NCBI GenBank assembly: GCA_965263355.1
Contig: CBDHHL010000032.1
Span: 960,001-1,024,000, forward strand
Direction of reading: 5' to 3'
Length of the DNA stretch: 64,000 bases
From: Leptolyngbyaceae cyanobacterium
GTDB taxonomy: Bacteria > Cyanobacteriota > Cyanobacteriia > Phormidesmidales > Phormidesmidaceae
The notes beneath the pieces are model-generated. The model searched no databases. It was not told where the DNA came from and saw only the letters and a program-made list of their open reading frames with translations. Positions 3,885 through 58,028 of the stretch are shown here, one piece after another. The position numbers were made by a program, and so were the translations under genes. The stretch's first letter is position 1; the number at the start of each line of letters is the position of its first letter.

Positions 3885-5567
3885 ATGCCTTACTCTCCCC
3901 TGCAGTTATCCATGTTTGCCCTGGCGATGGCCAGCCAGTGGCAGCAGCGTGCCTTTACTCGCCAGCTGCCCCAAGCAAGCGCTATCCAAGCTCGGTTTTT
4001 GCAAAAATTACTTAAAGAGCAGCAGGGGACGGCCCTAGGACAAGCCTTAAAACTAGATCGCGTTAGTAGCATTGAGGAATTTCGCCAACAGGTTCCCAAA
4101 TGGAACTACGACGGCTATGCTCCATACTTTGAGCGAGCGGCAGCGGGAGAGCCAAACGTGGTATCACCATTCCCGGTACAGAGTTTTAACATGAGCAGCG
4201 GCTCCACCGGCAGCCGTAAACTCATTCCCATTACCAAACGGGTCAAGCAAACTCGAGCCTATGCCAATCAAATAGCCATGGGCTATGCCTTTGAACAATC
4301 TCGTACCCAGGGGGGTAGCATCGGTCAACTATTGCTGACAACCTCAATCGCACCTCTGGGCACAACGAAGGGCGGCATCACTTACGGCCACGTTAGTGGT
4401 AATCAGTTGCGCACCACACCATCGTTTGCATTCAAACAGCTATTTGCTCAGCCCTATGACGCCATGCTGGTGAATGATACTGCCGCCCGCAACTATGTTT
4501 GTTTGCTGTTTGGTCTACAACAGCGATGGCTGACCTACATAGGTGCTAATTTTCCGCTGATCATGCTACAGCTATGCACTTACCTGGAAAAATTTGGCCC
4601 TGACTTAGTCAACGATATTGAACGGGGTAACATTTCCCAAGATATTTTTCTAGAACCAGAGCTGCGCCAATCATTACAACAACAACTATCGCCCCACCCT
4701 CAACGGGCCAAAGAACTGCAAGCTGTACTAGCTGACCATGGTCGGCTGTTACCTCGCTATGTGTGGCCAAATTTGGCATTTTTAATTACTGCCCGAGGCG
4801 GTCCGTCAGATTTTTATTTTGAACGTTTTAATGAGTATTTTGGGAATACCCCCATTTTTGGCGGTACCTATGCTGCGTCAGAAGCTGTCTTTGGGAGCTA
4901 CTGTCAGCTCAATGCCGACGGAGCTATTTTGGCATTAAAAACAAACTTCTTTGAGTTTGTGGCCCCCGATCAGTGGGAACAGGATAATCCTAAAACCTTA
5001 CTGCCCCATCAGTTGGAAATCGGCGAATATTATCGTGTATTAATCACTAACTATTCAGGATTTTGTCGGTATGATATTGGCGATATCTTACAAGTCATAG
5101 GCAAACGCCACGGTGTTCCTATAATTGTTTTTCGCTACCGTCGGGGGGGAACTCTCTCAGCGATTTCAGAAAAAACGACTGAGTATCATGTCACTCAGGT
5201 CATGGCTGCCTTGCAAGGAAACTTACCCATTGAGGATTTTTGTGTCACTCTCTCAGAATCTCTTATCGATCCCTATTATGTGCTCAACATCGAACTTGCA
5301 GGCAACAATAAACTATCTGATCCAAAACAATTTTTAGCCGCGTTTGATCACCATATGCAACAGACCAATGAGTCCTATGGGTTCAAGCGTCAGAAAAATG
5401 ATATTACCCGTCCCCAACTCAATCTTTTAGCGCCGGGCAGCTTTAAGCAGCTGCGGCAGCAAAGGCTGAAACCAGGAATTTCGGATGATGTTCAAGTGAA
5501 ACTAGCTCATATCAGTTGCGATCGCACGCTCCTGGACAGCATCACCATCATCCAACAAATTCGTTAA
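3885..5567 (+). CDS. GH3 family acyl-acid amido synthetase (GH3 auxin-responsive promoter family)
   Basis: SSGSTGSRKLIP, YAASEA, RYDIGD motifs; 560 aa. Confidence 0.9.
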   Translation: MPYSPLQLSMFALAMASQWQQRAFTRQLPQASAIQARFLQKLLKEQQGTALGQALKLDRVSSIEEFRQQVPKWNYDGYAPYFERAAAGEPNVVSPFPVQSFNMSSGSTGSRKLIPITKRVKQTRAYANQIAMGYAFEQSRTQGGSIGQLLLTTSIAPLGTTKGGITYGHVSGNQLRTTPSFAFKQLFAQPYDAMLVNDTAARNYVCLLFGLQQRWLTYIGANFPLIMLQLCTYLEKFGPDLVNDIERGNISQDIFLEPELRQSLQQQLSPHPQRAKELQAVLADHGRLLPRYVWPNLAFLITARGGPSDFYFERFNEYFGNTPIFGGTYAASEAVFGSYCQLNADGAILALKTNFFEFVAPDQWEQDNPKTLLPHQLEIGEYYRVLITNYSGFCRYDIGDILQVIGKRHGVPIIVFRYRRGGTLSAISEKTTEYHVTQVMAALQGNLPIEDFCVTLSESLIDPYYVLNIELAGNNKLSDPKQFLAAFDHHMQQTNESYGFKRQKNDITRPQLNLLAPGSFKQLRQQRLKPGISDDVQVKLAHISCDRTLLDSITIIQQIR

Positions 5568-7318
5568 AACGGCGTGTATTGGATGGAAAAATGAATCCCA
5601 CTGTCCTGCAACCCCTCATCATCCGTATCTAAATCCACCAGGGGAATGCCCCAATCCAAACGGGCAGAAAAATTGTCACTCTGTTGCCAGAACAATCCGA
5701 ACCCTGTTCCGACCAAAGTATCTGGACCAGGGGAACTACCATCATCATTCCAAACAGTACCTACGTCTATAAACGGCGTAACCTGCAATACACCATCTAG
5801 CTCCGGAACCCTGGCAATGGGCCAACGCAACTCCGCCGATAACAACGCCCCATTATCACGCCGTAACGCATCTTGTCGATAACCACGAACACTTTGCCCC
5901 CCGCCCAGGCTAAATTCCTCTTGGGGAAGTAAATCATCGGTAGTGAGCTGCACGTCCCCCCGCAAGAGAAACAATCGATCTGGTTTACCCAATAGTTTGA
6001 TCCACTGCCCTTGACCACGCCAGGAAAAGAACCGGCTATCCGGGGCGTCATCATTGATGGTGGCACCGAGTAAATCCACCCCCACGTTGAACTGCGATCG
6101 CAATGCCAATACATGACGCTGACTGCGCTGCGTCCACTCTTGAAAAAACCGTACGGCACTTGTGCGCGTACGACCATTTTCATCGGCACCAGGGGATAGG
6201 GGAAATGGCCCTATATCGTCTAGACCTAAACGGGTTTGACTGGTTTGATGGGATAGGGTAAGACCCAGAGCCGCGTCCTGGGTAGGCGTTTCAATCAAAG
6301 GATGACGATAACCCAGCTCATAGTAAGCACTGTCAGAGGAAATATCGAGCACCGAAAACGCAGAATTAATCACCCGGCTATCGGCGTAACCAGCTGCTAG
6401 ACGCAACGTATCGTTATTAGGACTGACTGGCACAGTGTAGCTAAAGTCCACACCATCACTGCCGTCAGTATGCTTATAATCCAGCGTAACTCGATCACCT
6501 ATACCAAACAGGTTACCTTCATCCACCCCAAGACTGACCTGGGTGCCGCCAATATTAGGCGATCGATTATTGGCCAAACTTGTATTAACTGCAAACGAGT
6601 CCGCCTCAACCACATCAATGACTAGCAAACTCGTCCCTGGCTGGACTCCGGCTTGTAAATCGGCAGATACCGTTTCTATTAATGGATTTAATTGCAATCG
6701 CTGCAGACCAGCCAAAAGTGTATCTACGTTAAGAGGAGGCTGGGCCCCTAATCCCACGCGACTACGAATATAGTCTTTATCTAGACGCCGGGTACCTCTA
6801 ACAACAATATCCTCTAACCGCCCTTCTACTACCTGAATAACGACAGTATTATCAACAACAGTCTGAGGCGGGATCAATGCTCCAGAGGTTAGATAGCCAG
6901 CTTGCACGTACCGATCGGTAATGGCCGAGCGCAACGCTAAAAGCTCATTAAAACTAAGCTGTCGATTACGATATTGATCCAGTAATTCTGCTAAATCCTC
7001 TTCATCGAAAATGGTGCTACCCATAATCTCGATATTTTCCACATAAAACTTAGCCTCCCCTTCTCCCAATCCCTCATCTGGAGGGACCGGTTCACCAGGA
7101 GAAAGAAGTTCATCCGGAGAAGGTAAGGATGGAGGTAAAGGCTCATCCGGTAAGGGGATCTCTGGCAGCGTCTCAGGCGGAATCGGTGATGTTTGAGCCA
7201 CGAGGGCACTTGCAGACGTCTGCACCATGGCCGGATAAACCAGTAAACAGCCGCACTGCCCTAGACCAAATAATATTTTTGTCAACAAAAATGAATAGTA
7301 TTTGTTTCTTAATACCAT
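5564..7318 (-). CDS. ShlB/FhaC/HecB two-partner secretion outer-membrane transporter (TpsB)
   Basis: POTRA region (ITDRYVQAGYLTS..VVEG), VRGY motif, beta-barrel pattern, C-terminal Phe. Confidence 0.93.
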   Translation of the reverse strand: MVLRNKYYSFLLTKILFGLGQCGCLLVYPAMVQTSASALVAQTSPIPPETLPEIPLPDEPLPPSLPSPDELLSPGEPVPPDEGLGEGEAKFYVENIEIMGSTIFDEEDLAELLDQYRNRQLSFNELLALRSAITDRYVQAGYLTSGALIPPQTVVDNTVVIQVVEGRLEDIVVRGTRRLDKDYIRSRVGLGAQPPLNVDTLLAGLQRLQLNPLIETVSADLQAGVQPGTSLLVIDVVEADSFAVNTSLANNRSPNIGGTQVSLGVDEGNLFGIGDRVTLDYKHTDGSDGVDFSYTVPVSPNNDTLRLAAGYADSRVINSAFSVLDISSDSAYYELGYRHPLIETPTQDAALGLTLSHQTSQTRLGLDDIGPFPLSPGADENGRTRTSAVRFFQEWTQRSQRHVLALRSQFNVGVDLLGATINDDAPDSRFFSWRGQGQWIKLLGKPDRLFLLRGDVQLTTDDLLPQEEFSLGGGQSVRGYRQDALRRDNGALLSAELRWPIARVPELDGVLQVTPFIDVGTVWNDDGSSPGPDTLVGTGFGLFWQQSDNFSARLDWGIPLVDLDTDDEGLQDSGIHFSIQYTPF

Positions 7319-7512
7319 AATCCTATTAAACTGCTATGCGGCCACGGTAGAAACGACTAGCTGTCTCAGGATGCCCCGTTTATATTGAAGTATTTAAATT
7401 TTTCAGCAGTATTGATGACGCGGTCTAGGATACCAGATGACACGATACTGGTTACATTTAGTTCAAGTAACATTAATATCGCCTACAAACTCCCTCAATC
7501 TGAGCTATTCGG

Positions 7513-8913
7513 CTAAAACGTTACAGACTGAATCGGCAATGTTAGGGTGAAGCAGGTTCCCTGCCCTAAGGTGGACGCTACATCAATAGAGCCACTATGC
7601 TTATCGACTACAATCTGCCGCACAATAGCTAACCCTAATCCCGTTCCCCGACCAACCTCTTTGGTCGTAAATAAATGATCAAAAATGCGTGGTTTGACGG
7701 CCTCATCAATGCCTGCACCATTATCCTCAATCTTGATCACAATACATTTATCATCTGCTGCTAAACCAGTGCTGACAGTTATTAGGTTTGATCGAGTCTT
7801 AGGAACTTCACAATTCGCTAGTTGGCTAATATCATCTAGCGTATCAATGGCATTTGCCAACAGATTCATAAAAACCTGGTTCAGTTGACCGGCAAAGCAT
7901 TCAATCTCTGGAATATCCTGGTAGTACTTTTTAACCTCGATTTCTGGTCTATTTTCATTGGCCTTGAGGCGATGCCTTAAAATCAACAAGGTACTATTAA
8001 GACCGTCATGCACATCAAACGATACCTTGTGTTCTTCATCTGCCCGTGAAAATGTGCGAAGACTATCACTAATATTGTGAATACGTTCCATACCTGTGGC
8101 CCAGGAAGACAAAAGTTTTTCTAAGTCTTGGCTTAAAAAATCCAGCTCAATCGATTCAATCCGCTCTTGAATAGCTTGCCCTGGGTCTGGAAATGTCTTT
8201 TGGTACAGTTCGATTAACCCTAACAGCTCCTGAATATATTCTCGGAGTGGCTCTAAGTTACCCTGCAAAAAACTAATGGGGTTATTAAGCTCATGGGCTA
8301 CACCTGCCACCAAATTCCCCAATGCCGACATTTTTTCATTTTGGACTAGCTGCAACTGAGCCTGCTGCAGTTTTTTTAGAGAATCTGATAACTCAGCCGT
8401 ACGTTGCTCAACCCTATGTTCAAGGTCTTGGGCTAATTGGTGGAGCCGAGATTCTGCCACAGTTTTTTCAGCAATCTCCTGGGTTAACAGTTCATTCTTT
8501 TCTTCTAACGCTTGAGTAAGAAATTTCAGGTGCAAATGAAGTTTGACACGCGCGATGACTTCTTTTTGCTGAAAGGGTTTAGTGATGTAGTCTACGGCCC
8601 CCATCTCTAATCCTTGCACCTTGTACTTAGAATCTGAAAGGGCCGTCATAAAAATGATGGGTATCGCCTGGGTCTCAGTATTGGCTTTTAGCCGTTGACA
8701 GGTTTCGAAACCATCAATTCCAGGCATCATCACATCCAACAAAATAAGATTAGGCTGCGCATATTTAGCCTGTTCAATCGCAGATACTCCATCGGTAGCC
8801 ACCAGCATTGTCCAATCATTGCCTTTAAGGGCATCAGACAGCACCTTTAAGTTAGTGGGCTTATCGTCCACTAACAATATCCGCACTGGCTGATCAAAGG
8901 AGCTGCTGGTCAT
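7513..8913 (-). CDS. Hybrid response regulator / histidine kinase (REC-HisKA-HATPase)
   Basis: [17 protein letters not shown] receiver; VAHELNNP H-box, NLLANA, DNGAG, GTGLGL; overlaps the upstream kinase stop. Confidence 0.95.
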
Positions 8914-11711
8914 AGGGATTTTCTAAGTGATACATGAGCCTGTAACAGCTGCTTGATTTTTGCAATCTGAAAATTTGAAGCCAGTGTTTGCAATGTATTA
9001 ATCAACTGTTGTGACTGAGCATCTGTCACCACCAGTGTCTTTAGCTTAGTTTCGATGTCCTGAATATTCCCCATCATCGCCCAGTGGTAAAGCTCATCCA
9101 AGATGGTATCAGGGATTAAAACAGGTGTATCCATCTTTAAATTGATGGGTGAACTTGGTTCAATCTGAGAATTATTCAAATCACTCTCATCGTATAGCCA
9201 CTCAAGCGCAAGCAATGTTTCCAAGGTTTCTGTTAGAGTTTTTAAATCAATGGGTTTAGGCAAAAACGTATTCGCACCAGCCGCTAAACTGCGTTGGCGA
9301 TCCGTTTCAAAAACACTGGCACTAATCACAATTACGGGAATATCTTGAAGTCCTTTGATCTGCCTTAACTGTTGAAGTAAATCAACTCCATTGAGTGTAG
9401 GCATAACCAAATCCGTAATAATCAGGTCAGGATATTGCTGCTTAATTAACTCTAAACCAGTTAAGCCATTGTCAGCACTATAGACATGGAATCCGATAGA
9501 ACCCAAAAAATCCAACAGCAGTTTAGAATCTTCTGAACTATCATCAATGACTAAAATGTTTGGAGTTTTTCCTTTAATACCAATAATTGTTCTGGCTGAG
9601 TCAATAAGGTGACTGCGGTCACCATACTCCAGCACAGGAATTTCCAAATCCATCCAAAACAGACTCCCCTCCCCTGGCATGCTTTGTACCTGAAGCTGGC
9701 TCCCCATTAACGTGACAATTTGTTGACTAATGGCTAGCCCCAAACCTGTTCCCTCTGACTTACGCTGACCATTGCCAACTTGCTCAAATGGTTTGAAAAT
9801 CTGTTCCAATTGGTCTGAAGTTATACCAATTCCCGTATCCTCAACCGATATACGCAGCCGACAATATTGGATTAACTGAGATGAGCCATCAGAAGAAGCG
9901 TTATCTAACCGCTTTACACTAAATGCAACACTCCCTTGATCGGTAAATTTTATAGCGTTACTAATCAGGTTAATCAAGACTTGACGAAAGCGTTTTTCAT
10001 CAATCTTCACTATCTGAGGTAGCGGGTAATCTAGGTTTAGAGTAAAGGTAAGCTCTTTTGCACGGGCACGAATCTGACACATCTCAGCCACACCCGATAG
10101 CAATGGCTCTAGATAAACCTCTTTAGGAAACAGTTCAAGCTTACGGGCCTCAATTTTGGCAAGGTCCAAAATATCATTAATCAAGGTGAGCAGATGGTTA
10201 CCACATTGATGAATAATCGAAATTTTATTGTGCTCTTCGTCTGTTAACGTTCGTGAGTTTTGCAAAATTTGGGTATATCCCAAAATGCCATTGAGGGGTG
10301 TACGTAGCTCATGGCTCATATTGGCTAAAAACTCGCTTTTGGCTTGGTTAGCATTATCAGCAGTCTGTTTAGCTTGGGCAAGTTCTTGCGTACGCTCTTT
10401 CACCTTTGTTTCTAGGGTGAGCGCATAATCTAAAAGCCGTTGATGAGAAAACTTCAACTGCTGATTTGTGAGCTGTAACCGATGTTTTTTAAACCGACTA
10501 GTGGTTGCGATCGCACTCCCCACTAAAGCCACCATCGGTGCCACGACCGGCAACACCCACCCCATTAGAAAACTGATATAACTTCCCCCTAGAAGCAATA
10601 TAGCACTCCCCCCCGTGACGACACTCGGCATTAAAAACCACCGCCGCTGCCGATTTTCTTGATGGTTATAGGTTTCTAAAAACCAATTTCCCAATGTCCC
10701 CCCAAACGCCCACAGAGTAATCCACAGCCACTGATATTCCCATGTCCAGCCCCGCAATAGAGGCCGTTTCCCCAGAGCACTGTCCAATAGATAGCTGGTA
10801 ATGTTGGCATGAATTAGCACACCAGCCATACGCTCATCTGCAGGCCCAAAGCCACCACTGTAGGGAGTGGCAAAAAAGTCCTTAGTACTGGCAGCAATGG
10901 AACCAATGTAGACAATGCGATCGCGCATCAAGCCCTCAGGAATCTTACCTGCCAGTACATCCGTAATTGAAATTTGTTGATATTGATGACTAGGACCATG
11001 CCACCCCATCAACACTTGATAGCCACCTAACTCATGGTTAGGGTAGCCAGCCGCCCGTCGCACCATCGGTAAAAAATCAGCCTGCCCCAACCGAAACTGC
11101 TGCCGGTCAAGGTTAACAGATTCAAGGACAATGCCATCCTGTTCTAGATAATTAAGGGCTAATTGGGTGCCCAACCCAGTTTTAATGACAGATGTTCGTT
11201 TATCTTCAGCAACGACTAAAATACGCCGAATGGTTTGATCCTTATCTGATACAAAATCAGCAACGGCAACCTGGCCAGTCTCTGCCAAGATTGGTGGAGG
11301 AGCTACCTGTCTACCAAAAACCTTCTCCACACCAATCAGTTGAGGTGTTGTCTCAAAAACATCCAGCAGTTGCCGATGCCCTGGCTCTTCCGGTAAATCT
11401 CGATACAGATCTAACCCAATCACCCGAGGCTGCTGAGCCCGAATATTAATTAACACCTGAGCCAAGGTTTTATCCGTAATGGGCCAGTGTCCCAACGCCT
11501 GAATATCCGGCTCATCCACCGTGACCACTACCACCCGATTATCAACAGGTGCTAACGCTCTACGACGATAAAACTCATCGCGGATAGCCCATTCCAACAA
11601 GTTTAACAGACCGAACCCATTGACAAAAATCACAATAGCGGACACACCAGGTGCCACAGACCAAATGGGCTTAGATTGCCGAATAAATTGTCTGAGGGCA
11701 ACTAAAAACAC
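8910..11711 (-). CDS. CHASE2-domain hybrid sensor histidine kinase (CHASE2-3TM-HisKA-HATPase-REC)
   Basis: [29 protein letters not shown]2 motifs, three TMs, [15 protein letters not shown]-terminal receiver with intact Asp. Confidence 0.95.
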
Positions 11712-11863
11712 GTACTGATTAATCTATCCGTCAAAATCACACTCCATCCCAATGTTATGAAGTATTCGAGACTTTTAGTCTAAATCAGTAAATGATCAAT
11801 CTCCATGTCTGTTTCACTAAAGGACTTTAACTTTAGTTCGTAACAAATAATGCGCGTGAGTCA

Positions 11864-12883
11864 TCAAAGGAAAGAATGCTCTAACAAAGAATCTAACCCA
11901 ACTGAGTCAAGGAACTCAGTCCAATTAGCAATCGTATCAACCTGAGTTTGAGGATTAAGTTGTAGCTCAGCCAACTGTTCAGCTGCATCGTACCAGATGC
12001 CAGCTTGGGCTAACACCTTAGCTTTCGCCAAACCAGTAAGCCCATCCACTTGAACAACAGAAGCTACATCAACACGCTTAATCCAAGCAGTCACATAGGG
12101 GCTGCTTGGTGTAATGTATTGGCCCGTTTGCAACGTTACAAACCATTGATAATATTTGCCAACAGCTAATTCTGGAGCATTCTCGTGTAGAGTAATCCTC
12201 AAAATACCATCCGCTCCATCCAAAGGAACGACCTGACGATAAATGACTGATCGAGTCTCATCTTTTAGGCTAAAAATCGCAGTATGCGCTTTAGTTTCAG
12301 GCAAATAAGCCATGATTGTAGGTCGCGCTGAAACAGTCAACCCATAAAGGTTGACTGGAGTCACAGGCATCATAGCTGTTACATAATTAGGCGCAAACCC
12401 ATGAACCGCAACACTCCCCTCTTCTGAGGAGAACAGAGCACTATCTTCAACACGACTTTCTCGAGAGGCACCGCTCACTGTACTCTGAGGGGCTGCATTG
12501 TCTGGAGGCGGGGTAAACCCAATTCGAGAGGCACCACTAGTTGCACTATCAGGCGCAGAATTGTCTGGAGGTGGAATAAACCCAATTCGAGAGGCACCAC
12601 CAGTTGCATTATCAGGCGCAGAATTGCCTGGAGGCGGAATAAACCCAATTCGAGAGGCACCACCAGTTGCACTATCAGGCGCAGAATTGTCTGGAGGCGG
12701 AATAAACCTGATACTGCTGCGGGAAGCCCCGCCATCACCACGACTTGGAGCAGTGTTGTCCACCGGAGGAATAAAAGTCACTGCTAAGGTCGGCGCTAGA
12801 GTAGTCAACCAGAGCCCTAAGCTTATATATGTCAGCCTGACTAGATTACTCAACAAGCTATACTTCATCACCATACGCCTCAC
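11864..12883 (-). CDS. DUF928 domain exported protein with N-terminal 21-aa tandem repeats
   Basis: Signal peptide, GGASR motifs, GLTVSARPTIMAYLP, GKYYQW, AGIWYDA, W..FLDSVGL; start may be a few codons downstream. Confidence 0.88.
   Translation of the reverse strand: MRRMVMKYSLLSNLVRLTYISLGLWLTTLAPTLAVTFIPPVDNTAPSRGDGGASRSSIRFIPPPDNSAPDSATGGASRIGFIPPPGNSAPDNATGGASRIGFIPPPDNSAPDSATSGASRIGFTPPPDNAAPQSTVSGASRESRVEDSALFSSEEGSVAVHGFAPNYVTAMMPVTPVNLYGLTVSARPTIMAYLPETKAHTAIFSLKDETRSVIYRQVVPLDGADGILRITLHENAPELAVGKYYQWFVTLQTGQYITPSSPYVTAWIKRVDVASVVQVDGLTGLAKAKVLAQAGIWYDAAEQLAELQLNPQTQVDTIANWTEFLDSVGLDSLLEHSFL
12461..12781 (-). repeat. Coding tandem repeat: 4 x 63 bp (12461-12712) plus one degenerate unit
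   Basis: Units encode IRFIPPPDNSAPDSATGGASR / IGFIPPPGNSAPDNATGGASR / IGFIPPPDNSAPDSATSGASR / IGFTPPPDNAAPQSTVSGASR. Confidence 0.95.
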
Positions 12884-13270
12884 TTAACCCTAGGTAAGAT
12901 TGCTGAAGTAATCGATACTAAAAATGCAAACGTGCAGATAACCCTTTAACACAGACCTATGCGCCTTACTCTTCCTAGTAAACTTTGTCTCAATTCAAAC
13001 CTCATTTTTTTTTACCGACTTTCTACTAAAAACCATAGTTACGTAGAAATAAGAGAGCCTTATTTAGGATAAATCCTAGTCAATTTTAATCAAAAGCAAG
13101 GACATAATCTTTATGATTATTGAGCATTTTATAGAGCTAATTAGCCCCAAAAAATTTATCGAATACTTATTTTTTTAGTTTTGCGAAAGTTCACCCAAAG
13201 TCTTTTGTAAAAATTCATGAAACGAGTTTACGCAAATTCACGCAAAGTCTCTTTTTTTAGTTACTTCCGC

Positions 13271-15844
13271 TTAGAGCCAGTTACCAATTAACACATAGGG
13301 CGACCAGAAAAAGGGCTCAGCAAAGTCTTTGTTTTTTAACAACTTCAGCTGTGCCTGACGTAGCGCTTCTGCCTTAGTCATCCTAGACTGTCCTAGATTT
13401 TGATAAAAATCGATCATCAGCTGCTTAGCCACTTCATCCCTGACAGACCATAGAGTCGCTAGAGTAGAACGGGCACCCGAGCGAACCGCTAATCCAGCTA
13501 ACCCCAGTGTGGCCCGATCATCCCCTGCAGCTGTTTCACAGGCACTGAGGGTTAACAGCTCAATGGCCTGACTACGCTCCGTTTCCCTACGTTTCAGCAG
13601 CTCTGATAACTCATTGATATTGATAGCCCCATCCCAAGTTAGAAAAAAGGTCTGACTAAAATCAGAACTAAACTGCCCATGGCTTGCTAAGTGGAGCACA
13701 TTGACTTGACGATCGGTCAAACTTTGACGTAGAGACTGACGCGTAAACTGCTGATCTAATAACTGATGTGAAGAAAACAGTTTACTGATATTGCTTACCT
13801 CTTCTTTAACCGCAGGCAATGCACTGAAACGACCGCGGGCCTGACTAATGCCAGCCACAATAGCATTATTGTCTTGGTTCTCTAAAGCATTGGCCGGTAA
13901 TAGCTGTAACCCTGGCGATAGGGCAACAGCATATTTTTCAATCAGGTATTGCTGGCCGTCGTGAAGAGCCGACATCGGTAAATTGCGAAGCAGACCGTCT
14001 AACACAAATACTAGAGTTTGCTCTGGCTTCAACAGACCGGCCTCTTCCGCTGGACGGATTAACCAGTTGTATAGAGTCTGGGCATAGCGTAATTGATCCT
14101 GACGATCGGTGGATGGATGCAGATTAGTTAGAAATGAGCGCAGCGTAGTTTCAAGTTGAGCATATTCGATCTTAGTTTCGTAGGCTTGCAACTGACCAGG
14201 TTGCGAATAAATCACTGCTAGCCGATCATCTAGAATGATGGCGTAAACCACCATGGCGTTGGCATCAATTTGATCAACTTTGTCAGTCTCAAGGTCTATA
14301 CAAGCCTCTCGAAAGAAATTGTCTAATTCTGCTATTTGTAGATTTTCTAAAATCACACGCGCTTTCTGTAAGGAGTTCTGACTCCCCTCTCGTAAAAGCT
14401 GTGAAACCAGATCTCGGTAAACCGGTTCTACCTGCTCTCGGTAGGAAAATTGAATGTCCTGGTTGATTGCTATCAGATCTCCCCGCAGACTTTGTAGAGC
14501 ATCCACCGCCTTCGTGTAAGCATCGATAGACGACTGTAATTCTCCCTGCTGTTCAAATAGCTGTCCCAGCTGCCAGGCTGACTGGGAAATGATATCTGCT
14601 GATTGAATAGATTCGGCTAGGAAAAGGGATTGTTCAGTTAAGTTAAGGGCATCGGTTAGTTGTTTATTCTGACGATATAGCCTTCCTAACTGATAGAGAG
14701 AGTAAGCCTCGGCTCGCCAATCTTTCAGTGCTTTGGCCGCTCTCACACCATTGGCTAATAGCTGACTAATTTGAGGGGTTGACAGAGGCTGAAGATCGTG
14801 GGGAAGTCGAGACAAATTGTGGGCCAGGTTAACGGTACCGTATACGGTCGTACGGCTGGCTGACATTGTAGTGAGCTGCTTTTGAATTTGCGCAGTAAGT
14901 TGAGAAATATCTGCTGTCTCTTCAAGATCGACATAGGTGGAAAGTTTATCTAAACGAGCCTGGAGCTGATCAAGCGGGATGAGCGCAGCGTCCTCCGCAG
15001 CTTGAAAGTAATCCAGCGCCTTTTGAGGTGAATCGACCTCAGCAGCCAACTTACCAATGCTCAAGTAGATAGAACTTAGTTCGGTTTGAGCGTCTAAATT
15101 ACGGGCTAGCTCAAGGCTTTGGGCCAGTACATTGTAACTATCACGGGGAGAACCGATCAGCTGTAGCGTTTGCCCTAAACTGCGCAATGCGGCAATTTTC
15201 AGCTGGCTATCGGGCAGCGTATTTAACTGCTGTGTAATTATTTGCAGTTGATCCTTGGCCCGTCGATAAAAACCTAGGGTTTGTAATGCCTGGGTCTGGT
15301 TAATTCGCACCCCCAAAGCACCCGCTGTGTCATCGGCCTGGAGATAGTAGATCTCTGCTTCTTGCCAAAGCTCTAGGGCGGTTTGAGCCTGACCACCGTG
15401 GTTCAGTGTAAGGCTAGCCTGAGTATTAAGGGTTTGAGCCCACAAAATCGGCTCTATATGGGGGGCCGTTTCCAGTAATGTTCGACTCATTTCAACGGCT
15501 TGCTGAGCCTGATCCCAGTTGTTGAGCGCTTGCTGGGCAGAGGCGATACCATTCCAGCCCATAACCTGACGAGGCAGATCTTCTTGTTGAGACGCTTGCT
15601 GAATGGCAATTTGCCACTGTTCAATTGCAGCCGCAAACTGTCCTGCGTGGTAATGGGTGCGTCCGACTGCCAATAGATCGCTGGCTGATATGGCCTGAAC
15701 TGTTGTAGCTGGTCGCTCTGGTGTTTCAGTAATTGCTGGAACGGGTAAGGTAGGGTTAAATGCGATCGCAACCACCACTAGAAACCCTAATACCCCAAAC
15801 CCCAACCAACGTAATCTTTTTATTCGGAAAGACAAATACGCCAT
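13271..15844 (-). CDS. TPR-CHAT (caspase HetF-associated) cysteine protease, exported or membrane anchored
   Basis: N-terminal hydrophobic signal, TPR-like helices, LHLASHG and LSACET catalytic His/Cys, ATLWSV, PFFWSPYVLIGNWL. Confidence 0.95.
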   Translation of the reverse strand: MAYLSFRIKRLRWLGFGVLGFLVVVAIAFNPTLPVPAITETPERPATTVQAISASDLLAVGRTHYHAGQFAAAIEQWQIAIQQASQQEDLPRQVMGWNGIASAQQALNNWDQAQQAVEMSRTLLETAPHIEPILWAQTLNTQASLTLNHGGQAQTALELWQEAEIYYLQADDTAGALGVRINQTQALQTLGFYRRAKDQLQIITQQLNTLPDSQLKIAALRSLGQTLQLIGSPRDSYNVLAQSLELARNLDAQTELSSIYLSIGKLAAEVDSPQKALDYFQAAEDAALIPLDQLQARLDKLSTYVDLEETADISQLTAQIQKQLTTMSASRTTVYGTVNLAHNLSRLPHDLQPLSTPQISQLLANGVRAAKALKDWRAEAYSLYQLGRLYRQNKQLTDALNLTEQSLFLAESIQSADIISQSAWQLGQLFEQQGELQSSIDAYTKAVDALQSLRGDLIAINQDIQFSYREQVEPVYRDLVSQLLREGSQNSLQKARVILENLQIAELDNFFREACIDLETDKVDQIDANAMVVYAIILDDRLAVIYSQPGQLQAYETKIEYAQLETTLRSFLTNLHPSTDRQDQLRYAQTLYNWLIRPAEEAGLLKPEQTLVFVLDGLLRNLPMSALHDGQQYLIEKYAVALSPGLQLLPANALENQDNNAIVAGISQARGRFSALPAVKEEVSNISKLFSSHQLLDQQFTRQSLRQSLTDRQVNVLHLASHGQFSSDFSQTFFLTWDGAININELSELLKRRETERSQAIELLTLSACETAAGDDRATLGLAGLAVRSGARSTLATLWSVRDEVAKQLMIDFYQNLGQSRMTKAEALRQAQLKLLKNKDFAEPFFWSPYVLIGNWL

Positions 15845-16063
15845 AGTCTGACTTTTGCCCTATGCAACAACAAACGCCCTAACCATTGGTACCATCAAGC
15901 AGACTGCAATACCCTTAACATCAACATCACCCTATAAGTATGTCAACAAGGGACAGCAAACGTCATCAGGAACATGCATCAGTTTGCCCTCATCTAAAGC
16001 TGCATTAATTTTTTTGGGCAGCGTCAAGACTCAGCCTCTCTAAAACCAACTATTCTTTCCTTG

Positions 16064-18721
16064 CTAATTAAAATCCATAGAAGCATCAGCACAGGTAGTT
16101 TTGGAAACCGATGAAACAGCTGCCGCATTCGTTGCAACTAGCTCAACTTGCCCCAGGTCATTGTGATACCAGATATTAGCTTCCTCTAATGTCGCATCAG
16201 TTGACACAACAGAGAATTCAATCTGGGAATCGTTGAGAAAAGAAGTGAGGTCGCGGGTGTCAGTCCAGATGCGATCGCGATGCACCCCCTCAGTCGGGGC
16301 CGCAGGCACTCCACCACGCCCTGTGACAACAAACTGATTACGCCCGCCCGTACAGCCCTGAACAACCTGGTTGCTGGCATCTGCTAAATTTTCAGGCAGT
16401 TCTACCAGTCCTGAATCTGGCTGTACATTAAAGTCATTAATGGCAACCGTACCACTGAGACCAAACTTAGAACTTGCGGTAATGTCGTTATCGGGGGTGA
16501 GTTGTTCGCGGAACATCAATCCAAACAGCCCCTGGGTCGTAATATCAATGTTGCCACCACTGCCAAAAACCGCATTGGCAACAATGTCACTATTCTCTAA
16601 ACCTAGAATGACTGGAGCAACTAAAACAATATTACCTCCAGCAGCCATGTCTGTAGCACTCGTCACAATTTCGCTATTTTGACGCAACAATATCAGCTGA
16701 GTAGCATTGATATTGATATTGCCCTCAATACCCGCTGTTACTTGTGCCTGCAAAACACCATCGTTGAGCACAAGATTGTCTGCAGAGATTGTCAAATTGC
16801 CTGCATTGCCCTCATTCAAACTACTGACCGACACTTGCCCCCCATCGCGAATGGTAATTTGATCGCCATTGAGCCTAATGGCACCTGCATTAAAGCTAGT
16901 AGTTGAGCTAGACGTGATTGCACTATGAAATAATGCATCATCCGATTGTCCAGCAATGTCAATTTCGCTGGCACGAATGTTAATGCTGCCTGCTGCTCCA
17001 AAACCCTCAGTCGATGCCGTAATCTGTCCTCCACGGGAAATCTGCAACTGATCAGCTTCGATATCTAGCGATCCTCCATTACCGGTGGAATCTATATTCA
17101 CACTGGCAACGATACCACTCACCGTATCGGACGCGTCCACAACAGCATCAGCTACCTCAATCAGGTCAGCCTGGATAGAAAGATTGCCCCCATCACCACT
17201 GCCAACAGTATTAACGGCTATTTTGCCCCCTTGAGTAATCGTTAACCGGGGTGTTGTCAGGCTCAGGTCTCCCGCATTTCCAGTAGACTCAAATTCAGCA
17301 CTCGAAAATATACCGCTGGACAAAAGATCCCCAAAAACAACTCCAGTACCTTGAATATCAACGGCATCTGTCGCCGTAATCGTAAACGCCCCTGAGCTAC
17401 CCCCACCAAAGGTACCAGTGCCGATTTGGCTACCCTCCCGCAGTACTAAACGCTCAACATTTAGAATAAAATCCCCACCATCACCTGCATCGGGGCCTTC
17501 TCCAAAGGTCGTCGCTTGAATAAGTGTTGGCTTTTGAGCCAAAAGTTGGTTGGCAGTAATGGTCAGATCCCCTCCTTGACCAGGTCCAAACGTGTCTGCT
17601 GCAATGACAGTCGCGAACTCATTGGAGATCCCCAATAGAGAAATGTCATCCGCATTGATTGTCAGGTCTCCTCCTGCCCCCGTTCCCTCCGCTTCGGCAA
17701 CAATAAAGGCTGTATTTGTCAACGTCAACAGATCTGTCTCAATTAATAGGCTATTGCCCTGTCCTGCAGCTAGGGGACTCACATCAATAACAACCGGGGG
17801 AAAGGTATCATCTCCAATCAGCTCCAACTTGTCAGTAGCGCGAATAGTTAGAGTTTCACCATCAGAGTCTCCCAGGTTAAATGCGAATAGGGCCGCATCG
17901 TCGGTCAGGGTAATCGAGCGACCCTGCAATTGAAATCGACCCCCTCCATCACCACTAACATCAACCATCGCCCCTTGAGTCAGCAGAATATCTTGAAAAT
18001 CAGTAGCATTGTCATAGGTAATCAAAAACGTGTTGGGATCGATGGTGACTTGGCTATCTGCCGCCACACCACCCAGCACAGTATAGCCAGACTCTACGAT
18101 GATGTTACTTCCGAAAAATTGAAGATTACCACCTAACAAACCCAGAGATTCTCCAGTATTGAGAATTAACTCACTTTGATTAAGGGTAATCTCATTGGCC
18201 GTATTACCAAACTGCAAACCGACAGGGGTACTAACGCTTAACAGAGGAGCACTGTTCGAATTACGACTACTAAAACTCAGTTCATCGTTAAATAAAACAC
18301 TCTCGGCTGTACTGGCAAAGAATGATCCTGGCAACAACAAACTTGCATTAGCTCCAAAGGTAATACCGTTGGGATTGATCAGAAATAAATCCGGATTGTT
18401 CCCACCGGTTAGCTCTAATTGTCCATCGATCAAAGAGAGATTTGCCCCCGTTACTCGACCAATAACGACATCCACAGCACTCTGAGTGCCATCTAGCTGA
18501 AACAGCACATCGGCTGTACTGGGTGAAAATTCTTGAAAACTGTGGAACAATGTTGTCAACTGCTGGCTACCGCCCGTGACGGTGAAGGGGCCATCGCCTG
18601 CAATGGTGGTACCCACTGTTCCATCCGCGACTACATTCTGAGCATAGCCAGGCAAAGCCAATGCCAAAATGCCGATTACCCCCAGCCACCCTATGGGCCA
18701 AGCAAATCGTCTATTGCTCAT
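16064..18721 (-). CDS. Filamentous haemagglutinin-like TpsA exoprotein, paralogue A
   Basis: Signal peptide, TPS domain (LFHSF..RVTG..LFLINPNGI), GNAGxLxI beta-helix repeats, C-terminal FVVTGRGG domain with two Cys. Confidence 0.93.
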   Translation of the reverse strand: MSNRRFAWPIGWLGVIGILALALPGYAQNVVADGTVGTTIAGDGPFTVTGGSQQLTTLFHSFQEFSPSTADVLFQLDGTQSAVDVVIGRVTGANLSLIDGQLELTGGNNPDLFLINPNGITFGANASLLLPGSFFASTAESVLFNDELSFSSRNSNSAPLLSVSTPVGLQFGNTANEITLNQSELILNTGESLGLLGGNLQFFGSNIIVESGYTVLGGVAADSQVTIDPNTFLITYDNATDFQDILLTQGAMVDVSGDGGGRFQLQGRSITLTDDAALFAFNLGDSDGETLTIRATDKLELIGDDTFPPVVIDVSPLAAGQGNSLLIETDLLTLTNTAFIVAEAEGTGAGGDLTINADDISLLGISNEFATVIAADTFGPGQGGDLTITANQLLAQKPTLIQATTFGEGPDAGDGGDFILNVERLVLREGSQIGTGTFGGGSSGAFTITATDAVDIQGTGVVFGDLLSSGIFSSAEFESTGNAGDLSLTTPRLTITQGGKIAVNTVGSGDGGNLSIQADLIEVADAVVDASDTVSGIVASVNIDSTGNGGSLDIEADQLQISRGGQITASTEGFGAAGSINIRASEIDIAGQSDDALFHSAITSSSTTSFNAGAIRLNGDQITIRDGGQVSVSSLNEGNAGNLTISADNLVLNDGVLQAQVTAGIEGNININATQLILLRQNSEIVTSATDMAAGGNIVLVAPVILGLENSDIVANAVFGSGGNIDITTQGLFGLMFREQLTPDNDITASSKFGLSGTVAINDFNVQPDSGLVELPENLADASNQVVQGCTGGRNQFVVTGRGGVPAAPTEGVHRDRIWTDTRDLTSFLNDSQIEFSVVSTDATLEEANIWYHNDLGQVELVATNAAAVSSVSKTTCADASMDFN

Positions 18722-18856
18722 ATCTACAGGCCATTACAACACAGCATTTTATCTCAGGCCCATCTACCTCACTTAGTTAGAAAGCTCAGGGTAAGGGATG
18801 AGTTTGCACCCATATGGGTTCTAGAGTAGCAGAGATAGCGATGCGATCGCACCAAA
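18432..18856. repeat. Near-identical direct repeat copy 1 (tpsA 5' end plus upstream region), ending just past a HIP1 site
   Basis: Matches 21325-21749 (offset 2893) with 2 differences seen; HIP1 GCGATCGC at 18843-18850. Confidence 0.92.
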
Positions 18857-18923
18857 GCAATGCTGGCAATTTATCAAGTTTCTTGATATTGATATCTCCA
18901 CCTCCTGCTCAATCATGTAATCC

Positions 18924-21614
18924 TCATAAAGAAAATGCTGACTTGGAGGAAATGGCACAGGTAGCGCTGGCAAATGATGAAACAGTTGCATTGGCTGAAA
19001 TCAACTCAATTTGTCCTAGAGCATTGGTATACCAGACATTAGCTTCTTCTAAGATCGCATCAGTGGGCAAAACAGAAACTTTAGTTTGAGAATTGTTGAG
19101 AAAAGGAGTGAGGTCGCGGGTGTCAGTCCAGATGAGATCGCGACGCACCCCCTCAGTCGGGGCCACAGGCACTCCACCACGCCCTGTGACAACAAACTGA
19201 TTACGCCCGCCCGTACAGCCCTGAACAACCTGGTTACTGGCATCTGCTAAATTTTCAGGCAGTTCTACCAGTCCTGAATCTGGCTGTACATCAAAGTCAT
19301 TAATGGCAACCGTACCACTAAGACCAAACTTAGAACTTGCGGTAATGTCGTTATCGGGGGTGAGTTGTTCACGGAACACCAACCCAAACAGCCCCTGGGT
19401 CGTAATATCAATATTGCCACCACTGCCAAAAACCGCATTAGCAACAATGTCGCTGTTCTCTAAACCAACAATTACCGGAGCCGTTAAGGTAATATTCCCT
19501 CCTGTTGCCATACCAGTGGCACTGGTCACAATTTGACTATTCTGACGCAGCAATATCACTTCAGTTGCCGTAACTTCAAGATTTCCTTCACTACCGCCAG
19601 TTACCTGAGCTTGAAGAGTTCCATTGTTCAGAGAGAGTCTCTCAGTGGAAATCGATAAGTTACCAGCAGCGCCACCGTTGAGGCTATTGACTGACACAAC
19701 CCCCTGATCACGAATCGTAATCTGATTACCAATAAGATTAACCGAACCAGCATCGGCACTGGCATCGGCATTCGTTGTCGCACCAGACATAATTCCACTG
19801 CTAAACAGACCATCCGTAGATTGTCCCGAGACTTCAATTTCATCGGCACGAATCGTTACAGTCCCCGCATTACCGGCTCCATCCGTAGAGGCCGTAATTT
19901 GTCCACCATTATAAACACTTAAACGATTTGCCTCAATATCTAACGACCCACCATTGCCAGTTGAACCAGTGACAGCATTGGCCACTAAACCACTGACCGC
20001 ATCAACAAAATCTACAATTGGATCGGCCACTTCTATTTCATCGGCTCGAATAGTAATATTCCCTCCATTACCCTCTGCAAGGGTATTGACGGCAACTTTT
20101 CCTCCTGCCACAACGCTTAATCGAGGTGTGGTAATACTCAAGTTGCCAGCGTTTCCAGTCGAACCAGGTTCAGCACTGGAAAATAAACCACTGGATATAA
20201 CACCACCAATAAATGTATTAAATCCAGTAATTTCCACAAAATCTGTCGCCACCACCACTAAATCACCAGCGTTGCCGCCCGCCCCCTCAAACGGACCTGT
20301 TCCTACTTGGGCTCCATCACGTAGAACTAACGACCCAATATTAAATCGTAAATCACTACCATTTCCACTATCAAGTCCTATGCCCAAAACATCACCAGTC
20401 ACCCGCGCCGTACCCTGAGCGATTAAACGCTCAGCAGTAATTTCGATCCCGCCTCCTTGTCCGCTATCATAAGTATTTGCAGCAAGAACAGTTGCAGCTA
20501 TATTTCCATCGGGATCTCCCAACAGCAAAACATCGTTTGCACTGATAGTTATCCCCCCGCTAGCCCCTTGAGCAAGGGTATCGGTACTGACATAAGCTGA
20601 TTGACTAAGCAATAACTGATCTGCCTCAATCAGTAACTGATTACCTCGCCCCTCACCATAAACATCAACGAAGATGAAACTGGTATCGGGTGCCGGCATA
20701 TTTGTTCCAATCACCTCTAATTTTTCAGACGCTTGAATAGTCACTGTTTCACCATCGGCTGCCCCCAGATTAGAGGCTTCTAAAGCCGCATTATCAAGTA
20801 CCCTCACATTACGTCCCTGGACTTGGAATCTACCACCACCATCACCACTAACATCAGCATATGTTCCCTGGTCAAGGGTAACATCCTGAAAAGAAGTTGC
20901 ATTTGTGTAGTCCAACAAAAAAGTATCCGTCTCCAGAGCAACTTCACTTCCTGGGGCTACACTACCCAGAGATAACATTCCCGCAGGAGCGTTCAAGAAA
21001 CTGCCTGTAACCTGCAGCTCTCCCCCCAAGAACCCTAGAGACTCTCCTGGATTAACAACTAGGACTCCTTGATCAATATTAATCGGACTGGCAACAGCCC
21101 CAAACTGTAACCCTACTGGCACACTCACTGACAATAAAGGTGCACTCCCAGGATCGCGGCTGCTAAAACTCAGTCCATCATCGAATAAAACACTCTCCGC
21201 TGTACTGGCAAAAAATGATCCTGGCAACAACAAACTTGCATTAGCACCAAAAGTAATACCGTTGGGATTGATCAGAAATAAGTCTGGATTGTTTCCACCG
21301 GTTAACTCTAACTGCCCATCAATTAAAGAGAGATTTGCCCCCGTTACTCGACCAATAACGACATCCACAGCACTCTGAGTGCCATCTAGCTGAAACAGCA
21401 CATCGGCTGTACTGGGCGAAAATTCTTGAAAACTATGGAACAATGTTGTCAACTGCTGGCTACCGCCCGTGACGGTGAAGGGGCCATCGCCTGCAATGGT
21501 GGTACCCACTGTTCCATCCGCGACTACATTCTGAGCATAGCCAGGCAAAGCCAATGCCAAAATGCCGATTACCCCCAGCCACCCTATGGGCCAAGCAAAT
21601 CGTCTATTGCTCAT
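18924..21614 (-). CDS. Filamentous haemagglutinin-like TpsA exoprotein, paralogue B
   Basis: Same architecture; first ~144 aa identical to paralogue A, central repeats diverged. Confidence 0.93.
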   Translation of the reverse strand: MSNRRFAWPIGWLGVIGILALALPGYAQNVVADGTVGTTIAGDGPFTVTGGSQQLTTLFHSFQEFSPSTADVLFQLDGTQSAVDVVIGRVTGANLSLIDGQLELTGGNNPDLFLINPNGITFGANASLLLPGSFFASTAESVLFDDGLSFSSRDPGSAPLLSVSVPVGLQFGAVASPINIDQGVLVVNPGESLGFLGGELQVTGSFLNAPAGMLSLGSVAPGSEVALETDTFLLDYTNATSFQDVTLDQGTYADVSGDGGGRFQVQGRNVRVLDNAALEASNLGAADGETVTIQASEKLEVIGTNMPAPDTSFIFVDVYGEGRGNQLLIEADQLLLSQSAYVSTDTLAQGASGGITISANDVLLLGDPDGNIAATVLAANTYDSGQGGGIEITAERLIAQGTARVTGDVLGIGLDSGNGSDLRFNIGSLVLRDGAQVGTGPFEGAGGNAGDLVVVATDFVEITGFNTFIGGVISSGLFSSAEPGSTGNAGNLSITTPRLSVVAGGKVAVNTLAEGNGGNITIRADEIEVADPIVDFVDAVSGLVANAVTGSTGNGGSLDIEANRLSVYNGGQITASTDGAGNAGTVTIRADEIEVSGQSTDGLFSSGIMSGATTNADASADAGSVNLIGNQITIRDQGVVSVNSLNGGAAGNLSISTERLSLNNGTLQAQVTGGSEGNLEVTATEVILLRQNSQIVTSATGMATGGNITLTAPVIVGLENSDIVANAVFGSGGNIDITTQGLFGLVFREQLTPDNDITASSKFGLSGTVAINDFDVQPDSGLVELPENLADASNQVVQGCTGGRNQFVVTGRGGVPVAPTEGVRRDLIWTDTRDLTPFLNNSQTKVSVLPTDAILEEANVWYTNALGQIELISANATVSSFASATCAISSKSAFSL

Positions 21615-26069: not shown

Positions 26070-26456
26070 ATGACTACCAGTAATGTTCTGCAGTTTATGC
26101 AGAAGACTGCCAACAACACCACGCTGCAGAAGCGACTTGAGCAACTGCTTGGCTGTGGCGATGGCGACATTAGTTCCAGTGTAAATCTTGATCCCGAAGA
26201 ATCCCTGGCCTTAAGCCAGCGTGCACCCAAAGTAATCGAATTGGCTGCATCCCTGGGCTATGAGTTTTCTAACGATGAACTGCTATCTGTGATTGATGCT
26301 TTTCAGCAACATCAAAATGGCACTATTTCGGATCAAACCTTTGCCGATCTCGTTGGGATCGCATCAGACGAAGGCGTACGTCCTGCCGTAAGAAATAACT
26401 TCAAACGTCTTGCCAATTATTTGTCTAAGACCTATTTAGGCGTACGTCTGTCTTAG
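26070..26456 (+). CDS. Nif11-like domain protein
   Basis: V.QFMQK..NTTLQ..L ... VIELAASLGYEFSNDEL pattern; RBS and downstream terminator. Confidence 0.7.
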   Translation: MTTSNVLQFMQKTANNTTLQKRLEQLLGCGDGDISSSVNLDPEESLALSQRAPKVIELAASLGYEFSNDELLSVIDAFQQHQNGTISDQTFADLVGIASDEGVRPAVRNNFKRLANYLSKTYLGVRLS

Positions 26457-32778: not shown

Positions 32779-33859
32779 TTACACTAGCAGAGTAAATAGC
32801 TTTACCATTAGCTTAGTTCGATTAATGGGTTTACCGATATAGCAAGAAGCACCACACATTTTGGCCCGAATACGACCAAATATATTAGGTTTCTTGGTTA
32901 ACAAGATAATAGGAACATCCTTATACTGCGGATGGCGACGCAGATGAGAGCATAAGTCAAAGCCATTCAAACCATCCATAGTTGTCGTCAGCATAATTAA
33001 ATCAGGCTGGCACTTAGCCAAATCCGCCACCGCTGTAGCAACATCATCAACTGGCGTAATCGCAAAGACTGTGTCCTCTAGATACCCCCGAAGCTCTTTA
33101 AGACACTGCTCATCAGAATCAATGCATACAAGCTGATATGACGGCGAAGCGCTCGCTTTATTAGCTAACGTTGACGTAAATGTATCAGGACTTAAAACCT
33201 TTAGAGATGAATCAAGCGTGTCAGGAGCCGCCTGCTTTAGCAGTGACTGAATATCACTGCCTGGCATAGGAATCGGCTCAACAACATGACTGCTTTGAGA
33301 CAATTTTATTTCGCTGATAGGCGTAGTGTCACGCTTTGACGCTAGGGATTCAGCTTCCTGATGACATTGCTCCACCAATGTCCGGATATCTAAGGTGCAA
33401 AAAGTGGGATAGTCAACGATATTACTAAAACTATTGACCTCATAACTACCTCGGGTAACCCTTAGCAAAGATGCAATGGTAGTCACTGCCAAAGCACGGA
33501 TAAACTGACCTGCCTGGTCAAATGAGATGTGCTCCTGCTCTACAAGCCAACGAATAGCCCGATAGTCAGCAGTCAAATCGTTACCTTGATGGGTGTACTG
33601 CCGATGGTAAAGCTGCAGTTGAGCAAGCACCAGATCAGAGATTGCCTCAGGAAACAGCTGACGACCTTCAAACCTCAAAGCATCGAATCCATTTTGAGAA
33701 CTCGTTGCAAATAAAAGCTTGCCCCGCTGTAACCACAGAGACCACCGAACATCATTGGAAACTACCAAGAGTTCACCACTGACTTGACGCCCTACAAGCT
33801 GCGCCAACAACGTGAGCGGATGTAATGTTTTTTGAGTAATAGTACCTGCTAAAACCATG
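32779..33859 (-). CDS. PatA-family response regulator (PATAN/DUF4388 plus degenerate receiver)
   Basis: N-terminal SGELLV..W.LWLQRGKLLFAT, C-terminal REC fold (PDLIML..GLNGFDLC..PIILLT..GASCYIGKP); start 33859 or 33876. Confidence 0.8.
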
Positions 33860-51518: not shown

Positions 51519-52052
<534 letters not shown>

Positions 52053-52085
52053 TCAGAACAATCTCACTTAGTCGTCAAGCGGTGA

Positions 52086-52655
<570 letters not shown>

Positions 52656-56888: not shown

Positions 56889-57422
<534 letters not shown>

Positions 57423-57455
57423 TCAGAACAATCTCACTTAGTCGTCAAGCGGTGA

Positions 57456-58028
<573 letters not shown>

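Follow-up and report, generated by a model that had tools for sequence, protein, structure and literature searches.

Gene content of the locus

The 64,000-nucleotide stretch of a Leptolyngbyaceae cyanobacterium analysed here (positions 960,001 to 1,024,000 of contig CBDHHL010000032.1, assembly GCA_965263355.1), which we call the window, carries seven intact open reading frames in a row on the minus strand, filling positions 5564-21614. These are tpsA1 (18924..21614, 896 aa) and tpsA2 (16064..18721, 885 aa), each with a two-partner secretion (TPS) domain; a gene for a TPR-CHAT protease (13271..15844, 857 aa); a DUF928 gene (11864..12883, 334 aa counted from the ATG at 12868); a gene for a hybrid histidine kinase with the layout CHASE2-HisKA-HATPase-REC (8910..11711, 933 aa); a REC-HisKA-HATPase kinase gene (7513..8913, 466 aa, with His207); and tpsB (5564..7318, 584 aa, POTRA_2 plus a ShlB/Omp85 barrel). 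An initial annotation of this DNA had named the same seven genes, and the reading frames and Pfam matches agree with it. They also agree on the coupling of the two kinases, the start of the REC-HisKA-HATPase gene overlapping the stop of the CHASE2 kinase gene by four nucleotides (ATGA). The remaining gaps measure 152-387 nt, and a promoter and terminator scan of the locus gave matches at chance level only; a single transcript for all seven genes is therefore putative. Both flanking genes lie on the opposite strand, a GH3-family gene on one side and an ABC transporter gene on the other (Pfam). The locus is covered at high identity by contigs of two public runs. A single contig spans 5300-12568 with 1 difference; both runs come from one study, which is possibly the source of the window itself.

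Hydrophobic N-terminal segments occur in both TpsA proteins, the CHAT protease, the DUF928 protein and TpsB. The export signals of the initial annotation survive as signal-peptide-like N-termini of this kind; export itself is predicted for TpsA, CHAT and DUF928 from hydropathy and from N-termini judged by eye. Both TpsA proteins match PF05860 (30-264) and TIGR01901 above cut-off. Behind a predicted signal peptide, TpsA1 has a repetitive body rich in Gly, Asn and Thr, probably a beta-helix, and a C-terminal tail with the protein's only two cysteines, at 800 and 886, and a TGRGG motif at 810. TpsA2 is 68% identical to it, with the first 144 residues the same and no DNA difference between −135 and +179 relative to the ATG, and likewise has only two cysteines, at 790 and 877. 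This two-cysteine tail of both proteins had been overlooked at first. TpsB has a Pro-rich N-terminus, PF08479 at 91-166, PF03865 at 228-542 and VRGY at 477; a second POTRA domain was not separately detected with Pfam. In public run X3, the 5′ block shared by the two tpsA genes (18432-18856 and the matching start of tpsA1) collapses to one contig with loose ends at a depth of 59 versus ~20, and a divergent contig lies over 19932-20013; a third tpsA copy or allele may exist.

The protease has a predicted Sec signal peptide, a hydrophobic segment at residues 10-39 and a CHAT domain (PF12770) at 586-855. Its catalytic residues are intact, as annotated: His722 (13679-13681) lies in ASHG at 720-723 and Cys769 (13538-13540) in SACET at 767-771, and both are invariant in 62/62 orthologues and 29/29 paralogues. 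The orthologues have signal-peptide-like N-termini, and the mature protein contains only two cysteines in 58 of the 62, the second being the conserved Cys515 (14300-14302). This residue sits within an ELxNFF..AC motif of stand-alone exported CHATs, and the four TpsA-CHAT fusions seen lack it; its partner could be the catalytic Cys or a tail Cys of TpsA. A sequence search found no solved relative of the CHAT protein.

The DUF928 protein, whose sole Pfam match is PF06051 and whose nearest named relatives are from Leptolyngbya, Leptothoe and Adonisia, has a predicted signal peptide, a disordered repeat region and an Ig/Fn3-like sandwich with a helical domain. Together with the phycobilisome genes of the window, these relatives point to a filamentous cyanobacterium as the host. 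The repeat region, also overlooked in the initial annotation, holds five tandem F.PP...AP....GASR peptides on the minus strand within 12461..12775 (12719-12775, 12650-12706, 12587-12643, 12524-12580 and 12461-12517); as DNA it is a 63-bp repeat present 3.9 times. The best fold match is the C-terminal domain of MtxA (PDB 4Z29). A profile of 150 DUF928 sequences gives no match to 4Z29, and an Atlas lead to the MtxA families reaches only 0.76. Among other DUF928 proteins, P0116 and P0132 have two whole DUF928 domains, each with its own motif, and those of loci L125 and L132 have an additional N-terminal TPR-like segment.

In the hybrid kinase, CHASE2 (PF05226) occupies residues 26-339 and the HisKA domain contains His467. 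The annotated arrangement of CHASE2 and three transmembrane helices fits the hydropathy of the family, which has one N-terminal and three C-terminal helices around CHASE2 and then the output domain, but the first of these three is weak in the window's own protein, falling below threshold.

Conservation of the gene set

The seven-gene parts form one conserved unit, a conclusion supported by the neighbourhoods of DUF928 genes. Scanning species genomes yielded 305 DUF928 relatives that were confirmed, and loci were analysed for the best 80 of the 305, all from the repeat-bearing subfamily and hence no random sample; only loci with sufficient flank entered each count. TPR-CHAT lies immediately upstream of DUF928 in 66/70 loci and a CHASE2 receptor gene immediately downstream in 63/74, with a REC-kinase within 5 kb in 49/62 and TpsA upstream in 48/60. 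The order of genes in this orthologous cassette is stable across distant cyanobacteria. The recurrence of these families together, stated in the initial annotation, is supported by this conserved co-occurrence.

The whole family was sampled in five genomes, where 58 of 60 DUF928 matches were kept after removal of two weak partial ones. CHASE2 lies within 5 kb of 50/58 of these genes, with 1.4 expected; CHAT within 5 kb of at least 26/58, counted on 150 of 239 CHAT matches, with 2.3 expected; and a TPS domain within 5 kb of 14/58, with 2.1 expected, and within 10 kb of 30/58. CHASE2 has its closest genomic partner in DUF928, which is tied to it more tightly than to CHAT.

In a phylum sample of 201 genomes, with a threshold of E 1e-90 for exported-type CHAT, DUF928 is present in 62, all of which carry CHASE2 (66 genomes overall). 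TPS occurs in 61 of the 62 (63 overall), exported-type CHAT in 52 (53 overall) and exported-type or TpsA-fused CHAT in 60, and 133 of the 201 genomes have none of DUF928, CHASE2, TPS and exported-type CHAT. Eight of the 10 DUF928 genomes without exported-type CHAT (G144, G150, G093, G099, G033, G135, G156 and G194) have TPS and CHAT matches in one open frame, and in G123 the two matches are adjacent. We consider it very likely that the seven-gene set works as one functional system.

Copy number varies in some genomes. One region (G003:C1:4629828-4659106) holds an array of about nine tpsA genes, and G099 has about 15 TpsA-CHAT fusions in one genome. Two records with Nostoc-like loci, L033 and L061, have 6-7 DUF928 copies; their titles, Actinomycetota and Acetobacteraceae, look wrong, since drawing on the phylum of L061's genome gives the same set as drawing on cyanobacteria.

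TpsA tail, DUF928 motif and CHASE2 receptor

The two tail cysteines recur in 95/98 TpsA proteins from orthologous loci and in 19/19 paralogues, and the body is Cys-free in 96/98. By analogy with CdrA of Pseudomonas, a C-terminal tail closed by a disulfide may anchor TpsA on the periplasmic side. The five genomes contain 117 TPS frames of at least 750 aa, of which 87 have the tail, 17 end in CHAT, 13 have neither and none has both; the count covers 133 of 134 TPS matches and 53 of the 150 CHAT matches listed, the top-scoring and long-frame ones, and CHAT fusions number at least 17. Because tail and fused CHAT are mutually exclusive, the tail appears tied to CHAT. The simplest reading is that it recruits the separate TPR-CHAT and is superfluous in fusions; we give even odds to the tail controlling CHAT. 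One 5′-truncated frame, L230, reads filament, tail, TPR and CHAT in order and may have arisen by chance from two neighbouring genes. The Arg of TGRGG is kept in 82/98 close relatives and in only 12/19 distant ones, scored by eye, which makes TGRGG an unlikely cut site. Both ends of TpsA are conserved and the middle is variable (column identity 0.68-0.80 versus 0.13-0.46).

The motif Arg of the DUF928 peptide is conserved in 96/100 homologues. HetF, the only cyanobacterial CHAT with a mapped cut site that we found, cleaves after Arg, and the small residue that follows matters (PMC9457339). Separase also cuts after Arg, and craspases after Met or Leu (PMC11506125). By analogy with HetF and separase, the window's CHAT may prefer Arg, and the conserved motif is supported as a fit to a CHAT cut site. 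That CHAT does cut it we rate somewhat short of even.

A link between the motif and the receptor is suggested by a natural variant. The expectation set before inspection was an acidic residue co-varying with the motif Arg. In three DUF928 genes (L113, L116 and L151) Leu replaces this Arg, and their CHASE2 partners read D-M-H-R-(F/Y), with F or Y at position 105; in the 96 partners of Arg-type genes this residue is D (87 cases), N, H, E or A and never F or Y. The corresponding residue of the window is Asp105, encoded at 11397-11399. In a CHASE2 model with a pTM of 0.92 it follows the point where a core strand ends, a position at which binding sites are common; a comparison of this model with solved structures found no match. 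DUF928 is likely to be a periplasmic ligand or co-receptor of the CHASE2 kinase. It probably binds CHASE2, and the chances that the motif itself is the contact are evenly balanced.

The DUF928-CHASE2 front end serves several outputs: a scan of 31 of 46 CHASE2 receptors found histidine kinases, nucleotide cyclases, GGDEF/EAL, Ser/Thr kinase, TIR and caspase-like domains, and a genome may hold up to 30 CHASE2 receptors. Near DUF928 genes, one receptor is fused to three TIR domains (L118:11062-14310) and another to an AAA_35 domain (L144:3504-6275). In Gemmatirosa (L222:1556-14324) a CHASE2 protein lies between two signal-peptide TPR proteins and a HExxH peptidase-like gene, with no DUF928 recognised at that locus.

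Other genes of the window stand apart from this set. The GH3-family (acyl-acid amido synthetase-like) gene at 3885-5567 (+) has a stop that overlaps the tpsB stop by 4 nt, and a gene of the same size lies at the same position in L001 and L003. A Nif11-domain small protein is encoded at 26070-26456 (+) and a DUF4388-REC regulator, presumably PatA-like, at 32779-33876 (-). A phycobiliprotein gene pair (184 and 164 aa) is present twice, at 51519-52640 and 56889-58010 (-), with identical Pfam scores; both copies belong to a large phycobilisome cluster that also holds lyases and linkers, and a recent duplication is possible.

A candidate signalling chain and its relatives

The leading model remains the chain of the initial annotation, now with a named site and contact: TpsA would gate CHAT, CHAT would cut peptides from DUF928, and the peptides would set CHASE2 kinase activity. 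We put the probability of the whole chain at about 0.4. TpsA1 and TpsA2 would pass through TpsB, an export route established for TPS pairs and represented here by the domains, and they would stay in the TpsB pore through the disulfide-closed tail on the periplasmic side, by analogy with CdrA. TPR-CHAT would dock on the tail, and pulling, release or binding of the filament would switch it. Active CHAT would then cleave DUF928 behind the motif Arg, and the five repeats would yield more than one peptide from each molecule or raise the local dose. To judge from the one co-change, the MtxA-like domain may present the free or trimmed peptide to CHASE2 near Asp105. Domains and gene overlap suggest that the hybrid kinase would pass phosphate to the coupled REC-kinase; in a domain scan, other copies of the module drive cyclases, cyclic di-GMP enzymes and Ser/Thr kinases. 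That the input is contact or damage, as first proposed, we regard as improbable.

The earlier interpretation is thus upheld for the conserved unit and not for a strict chain encoded in one locus, and a number of observations weigh against the model. The set is complete in the window, as claimed, but completeness is not the rule elsewhere: tpsB is near DUF928 in just 17/41 long loci, TpsA, TpsB, CHAT and CHASE2 are all present in 15/41, and 27/46 CHASE2-near DUF928 genes have no separate CHAT gene within 500 bp. In one clade the cassette is broken after DUF928; CHAT remains beside DUF928, and the kinase (47-54% identical to the window's) lies elsewhere with no DUF928 within 1.5 kb in 5/5 genomes. 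G141 has DUF928 and CHASE2, but TPS and exported-type CHAT matches are absent. The 201 genomes include related and some incomplete ones, so that the counts describe a strong pattern and not phylogenetically independent events. The cleavage step is subject to the variable cut specificity of CHATs, exemplified by craspases (PMC11506125), to the low information of the Gly-rich motif, and to the retention of that motif in DUF928 genes without a nearby CHAT. Asp803 of CHAT (13436-13438), whose position may match the Arg-binding Asp of separase, is kept in 29/29 CHATs, including the one beside the Leu-type DUF928 of L116, and therefore does not discriminate; it may be structural, or the L116 CHAT may not cut the motif. 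At the receptor, L113, L116 and L151 form one clade in both trees, which makes the Arg/Asp105 co-change a single event, spotted among about 75 conserved columns inspected. A fourth Leu locus, L207, has Ala at position 105, as does one Arg-type locus, and L149 lacks the motif Arg but keeps Asp105. Paired covariation, too shallow at an effective depth of 50, places Asp105 only ninth for the Arg column. Finally, deletion of mtxA gave no phenotype (PMC4439547).

The same evidence can be arranged differently. CHAT might cut the periplasmic TpsA tail and shed the filament, as LapG does for CdrA, the DUF928 repeats being decoy or securin-like inhibitor sites and CHASE2 controlling or reporting the protease by holding DUF928, with signal flow inside-out or two-way. 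The proposed anchor of CdrA in CdrB is a cysteine hook, and periplasmic LapG frees the adhesin (PMC11898600); the TpsA tails have a matching two-Cys pattern with TGRGG between the cysteines in 82/98, tail and fused CHAT exclude each other, and CHAT stays by DUF928 where the kinase has moved off. We consider such a release unlikely, however, given that the tail Arg, found in 12/19 of the wider family, is elsewhere Q, N, S, L, T or E, so that TGRGG looks structural, that DUF928 genes are linked more tightly to CHASE2 than to CHAT, and that TpsA-CHAT fusions have no tail to cut. Proteolysis might also be dispensable. While 50/58 DUF928 genes are near CHASE2, only 19/46 of the CHASE2-near ones have CHAT within 500 bp; the motif-residue co-change was found in CHASE2 and not in CHAT; and betaproteobacterial CHASE2 kinases pair with FecR-domain proteins, with no CHAT annotated in two loci. 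DUF928 would then resemble MtxA or the LysM-FecR partners of proteobacterial CHASE2 kinases, binding CHASE2 through its intact motif and relaying a small-molecule or envelope cue, CHAT merely maturing TpsA or acting on the receptor or itself. What makes this rather unlikely is that exported-type or TpsA-fused CHAT is kept in 60/62 DUF928 genomes, that CHAT adjoins repeat-type DUF928 in 66/70 loci, and that an Arg-ending motif, repeated in a disordered region and encoded next to a protease whose family has Arg-cutting members, suits a substrate.

Very improbable, in our view, is an intrusion alarm in which TPR-CHAT, in the way suggested for DdvA, senses a foreign periplasmic protein (from phage, predator or competitor), the variable TpsA arrays serve as baits, and DUF928 and CHASE2 relay a defence response. 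DdvA, whose TPR-CHAT is periplasmic, does govern a defence island (PMC11506125), caspase-like, TIR and AAA domains occur fused to paralogous CHASE2 receptors (PMC8195603), TpsA has conserved ends around a variable middle, and many-copy arrays exist. The outputs of the window's cassette are ordinary kinases, however, and Pfam finds no flanking defence genes in the window (PADLOC was not searched). Moreover, the orthologous cassette is well conserved and order-stable across distant cyanobacteria, and most defence islands are not known to show such conservation and stable order.

It is useful to contrast the proposed chain from TpsA to the CHASE2 kinase with systems in which its pieces are already known: MtxA-CHASE2, FecR-CHASE2, CdrA-LapG, DdvA, EACC2-caspase-CHASE2 and HetF. 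Literature searches found no paper describing the whole set, and none on CHAT with CHASE2, or CHAT with haemagglutinin, in cyanobacteria; DUF928 appeared in one paper, which places it next to a CHASE2 gene in a single Nostoc cluster (PMC5587647). Within the reach of these searches the combination is undescribed, and it is a variant of the partner-plus-CHASE2 theme. In the mtx cluster of magnetotactic bacteria, an exported Ig-like and helical protein likewise comes just before a CHASE2 receptor (PMC4439547, PMC5088516). MtxA and DUF928 share this fold (Ig-like and TPR-like) with no sequence similarity detected. They differ in the N-terminal part, folded in MtxA by small-angle X-ray scattering (PMC4439547, PMC5088516) and a disordered repeated peptide in DUF928, and in the receptor, an adenylate cyclase there and a hybrid histidine kinase in the window, with cyclase versions known among paralogues. 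The available text of the same papers mentions no TPS pair or CHAT. In operons of Betaproteobacteria, a periplasmic LysM-FecR partner gene directly precedes a CHASE2 histidine kinase gene, as DUF928 does here (BiofilmReg; PMC5192318); the partner family is FecR/LysM, and CHAT, TpsA and TpsB are unannotated in the two loci compared. The FecR-domain partners at L223:5226-6902 and L224:4499-5893 carry AGVRGT, which resembles the GGVRG (GGxRG) form of the DUF928 motif, a likeness from 2 sequences only that we treat as a lead. FecR of E. coli cleaves itself at G181-T182 (PMC12036975).

CHAT and CHASE2 recur in other settings. LapG and LapD belong to families other than these two and signal inside-out from cyclic di-GMP. 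The window has a CHAT protease, a CHASE2 kinase and an extra DUF928, with no LapG or LapD family by Pfam; shared with CdrA-CdrB and LapG/LapD of Pseudomonas are a TPS adhesin with a putative C-terminal Cys anchor, a periplasmic protease and an inner-membrane receptor (PMC11898600). DdvA of Myxococcus xanthus likewise combines a periplasmic TPR-CHAT, a His-Cys dyad and proposed trans-envelope signalling by proteolysis, but it is an anti-sigma factor in the membrane, for which self-cleavage has been proposed (PMC11506125). In the window, TPR-CHAT is a protein of its own, predicted to be soluble and exported; it has no domain N-terminal to its hydrophobic segment, and its locus has a candidate substrate gene next door, a kinase output and no sigma gene. 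EACC2-caspase-CHASE2 systems also link CHASE2 to a caspase-like domain, there fused N-terminal to the receptor and cytoplasmic by inference, with TpsA unmentioned in the portion available (Kaur et al. 2021; PMC8195603). Here CHAT is separate and predicted to be exported, and CHASE2 starts at residue 26, leaving no N-terminal caspase fusion; fusions of the EACC2 type adjoin paralogous DUF928 genes and occur only in paralogous loci. HetF, paired with PatU3 in Anabaena, cuts after Arg with a small residue next; it sits in the membrane, its TPR domain being described as periplasmic, and serves cell division and heterocyst formation (PMC9457339).

The ligand of CHASE2 is stated to be unknown in the available parts of PMC10581220 and PMC5192318. 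The locus offers candidates for the ligand (a peptide of about 20 residues), for a receptor residue (Asp105) and for the protease with its cut site, to which a naturally occurring Leu/aromatic variant can be added. More broadly, CHASE2 domains might be peptide receptors that read a short Gly-Gly-x-x-Arg(-Gly) end left by proteolysis. In cyanobacteria the TPS filament would be an outer-membrane antenna gating a periplasmic caspase-like protease, which would release repeated peptide signals from DUF928, a polyprotein-like precursor; the same end would be supplied in Proteobacteria by self-cleaving partners of FecR or MtxA type. This generalisation in full is unlikely. If true, it would define a new outside-in signalling class and the first such signalling role for a TPS filament. 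CHASE2 receptors control motility and biofilm in Leptolyngbya and Burkholderia. Overall, DUF928 gains a fold and a partner, and the many TpsA and exported CHAT genes of cyanobacteria gain a possible job.

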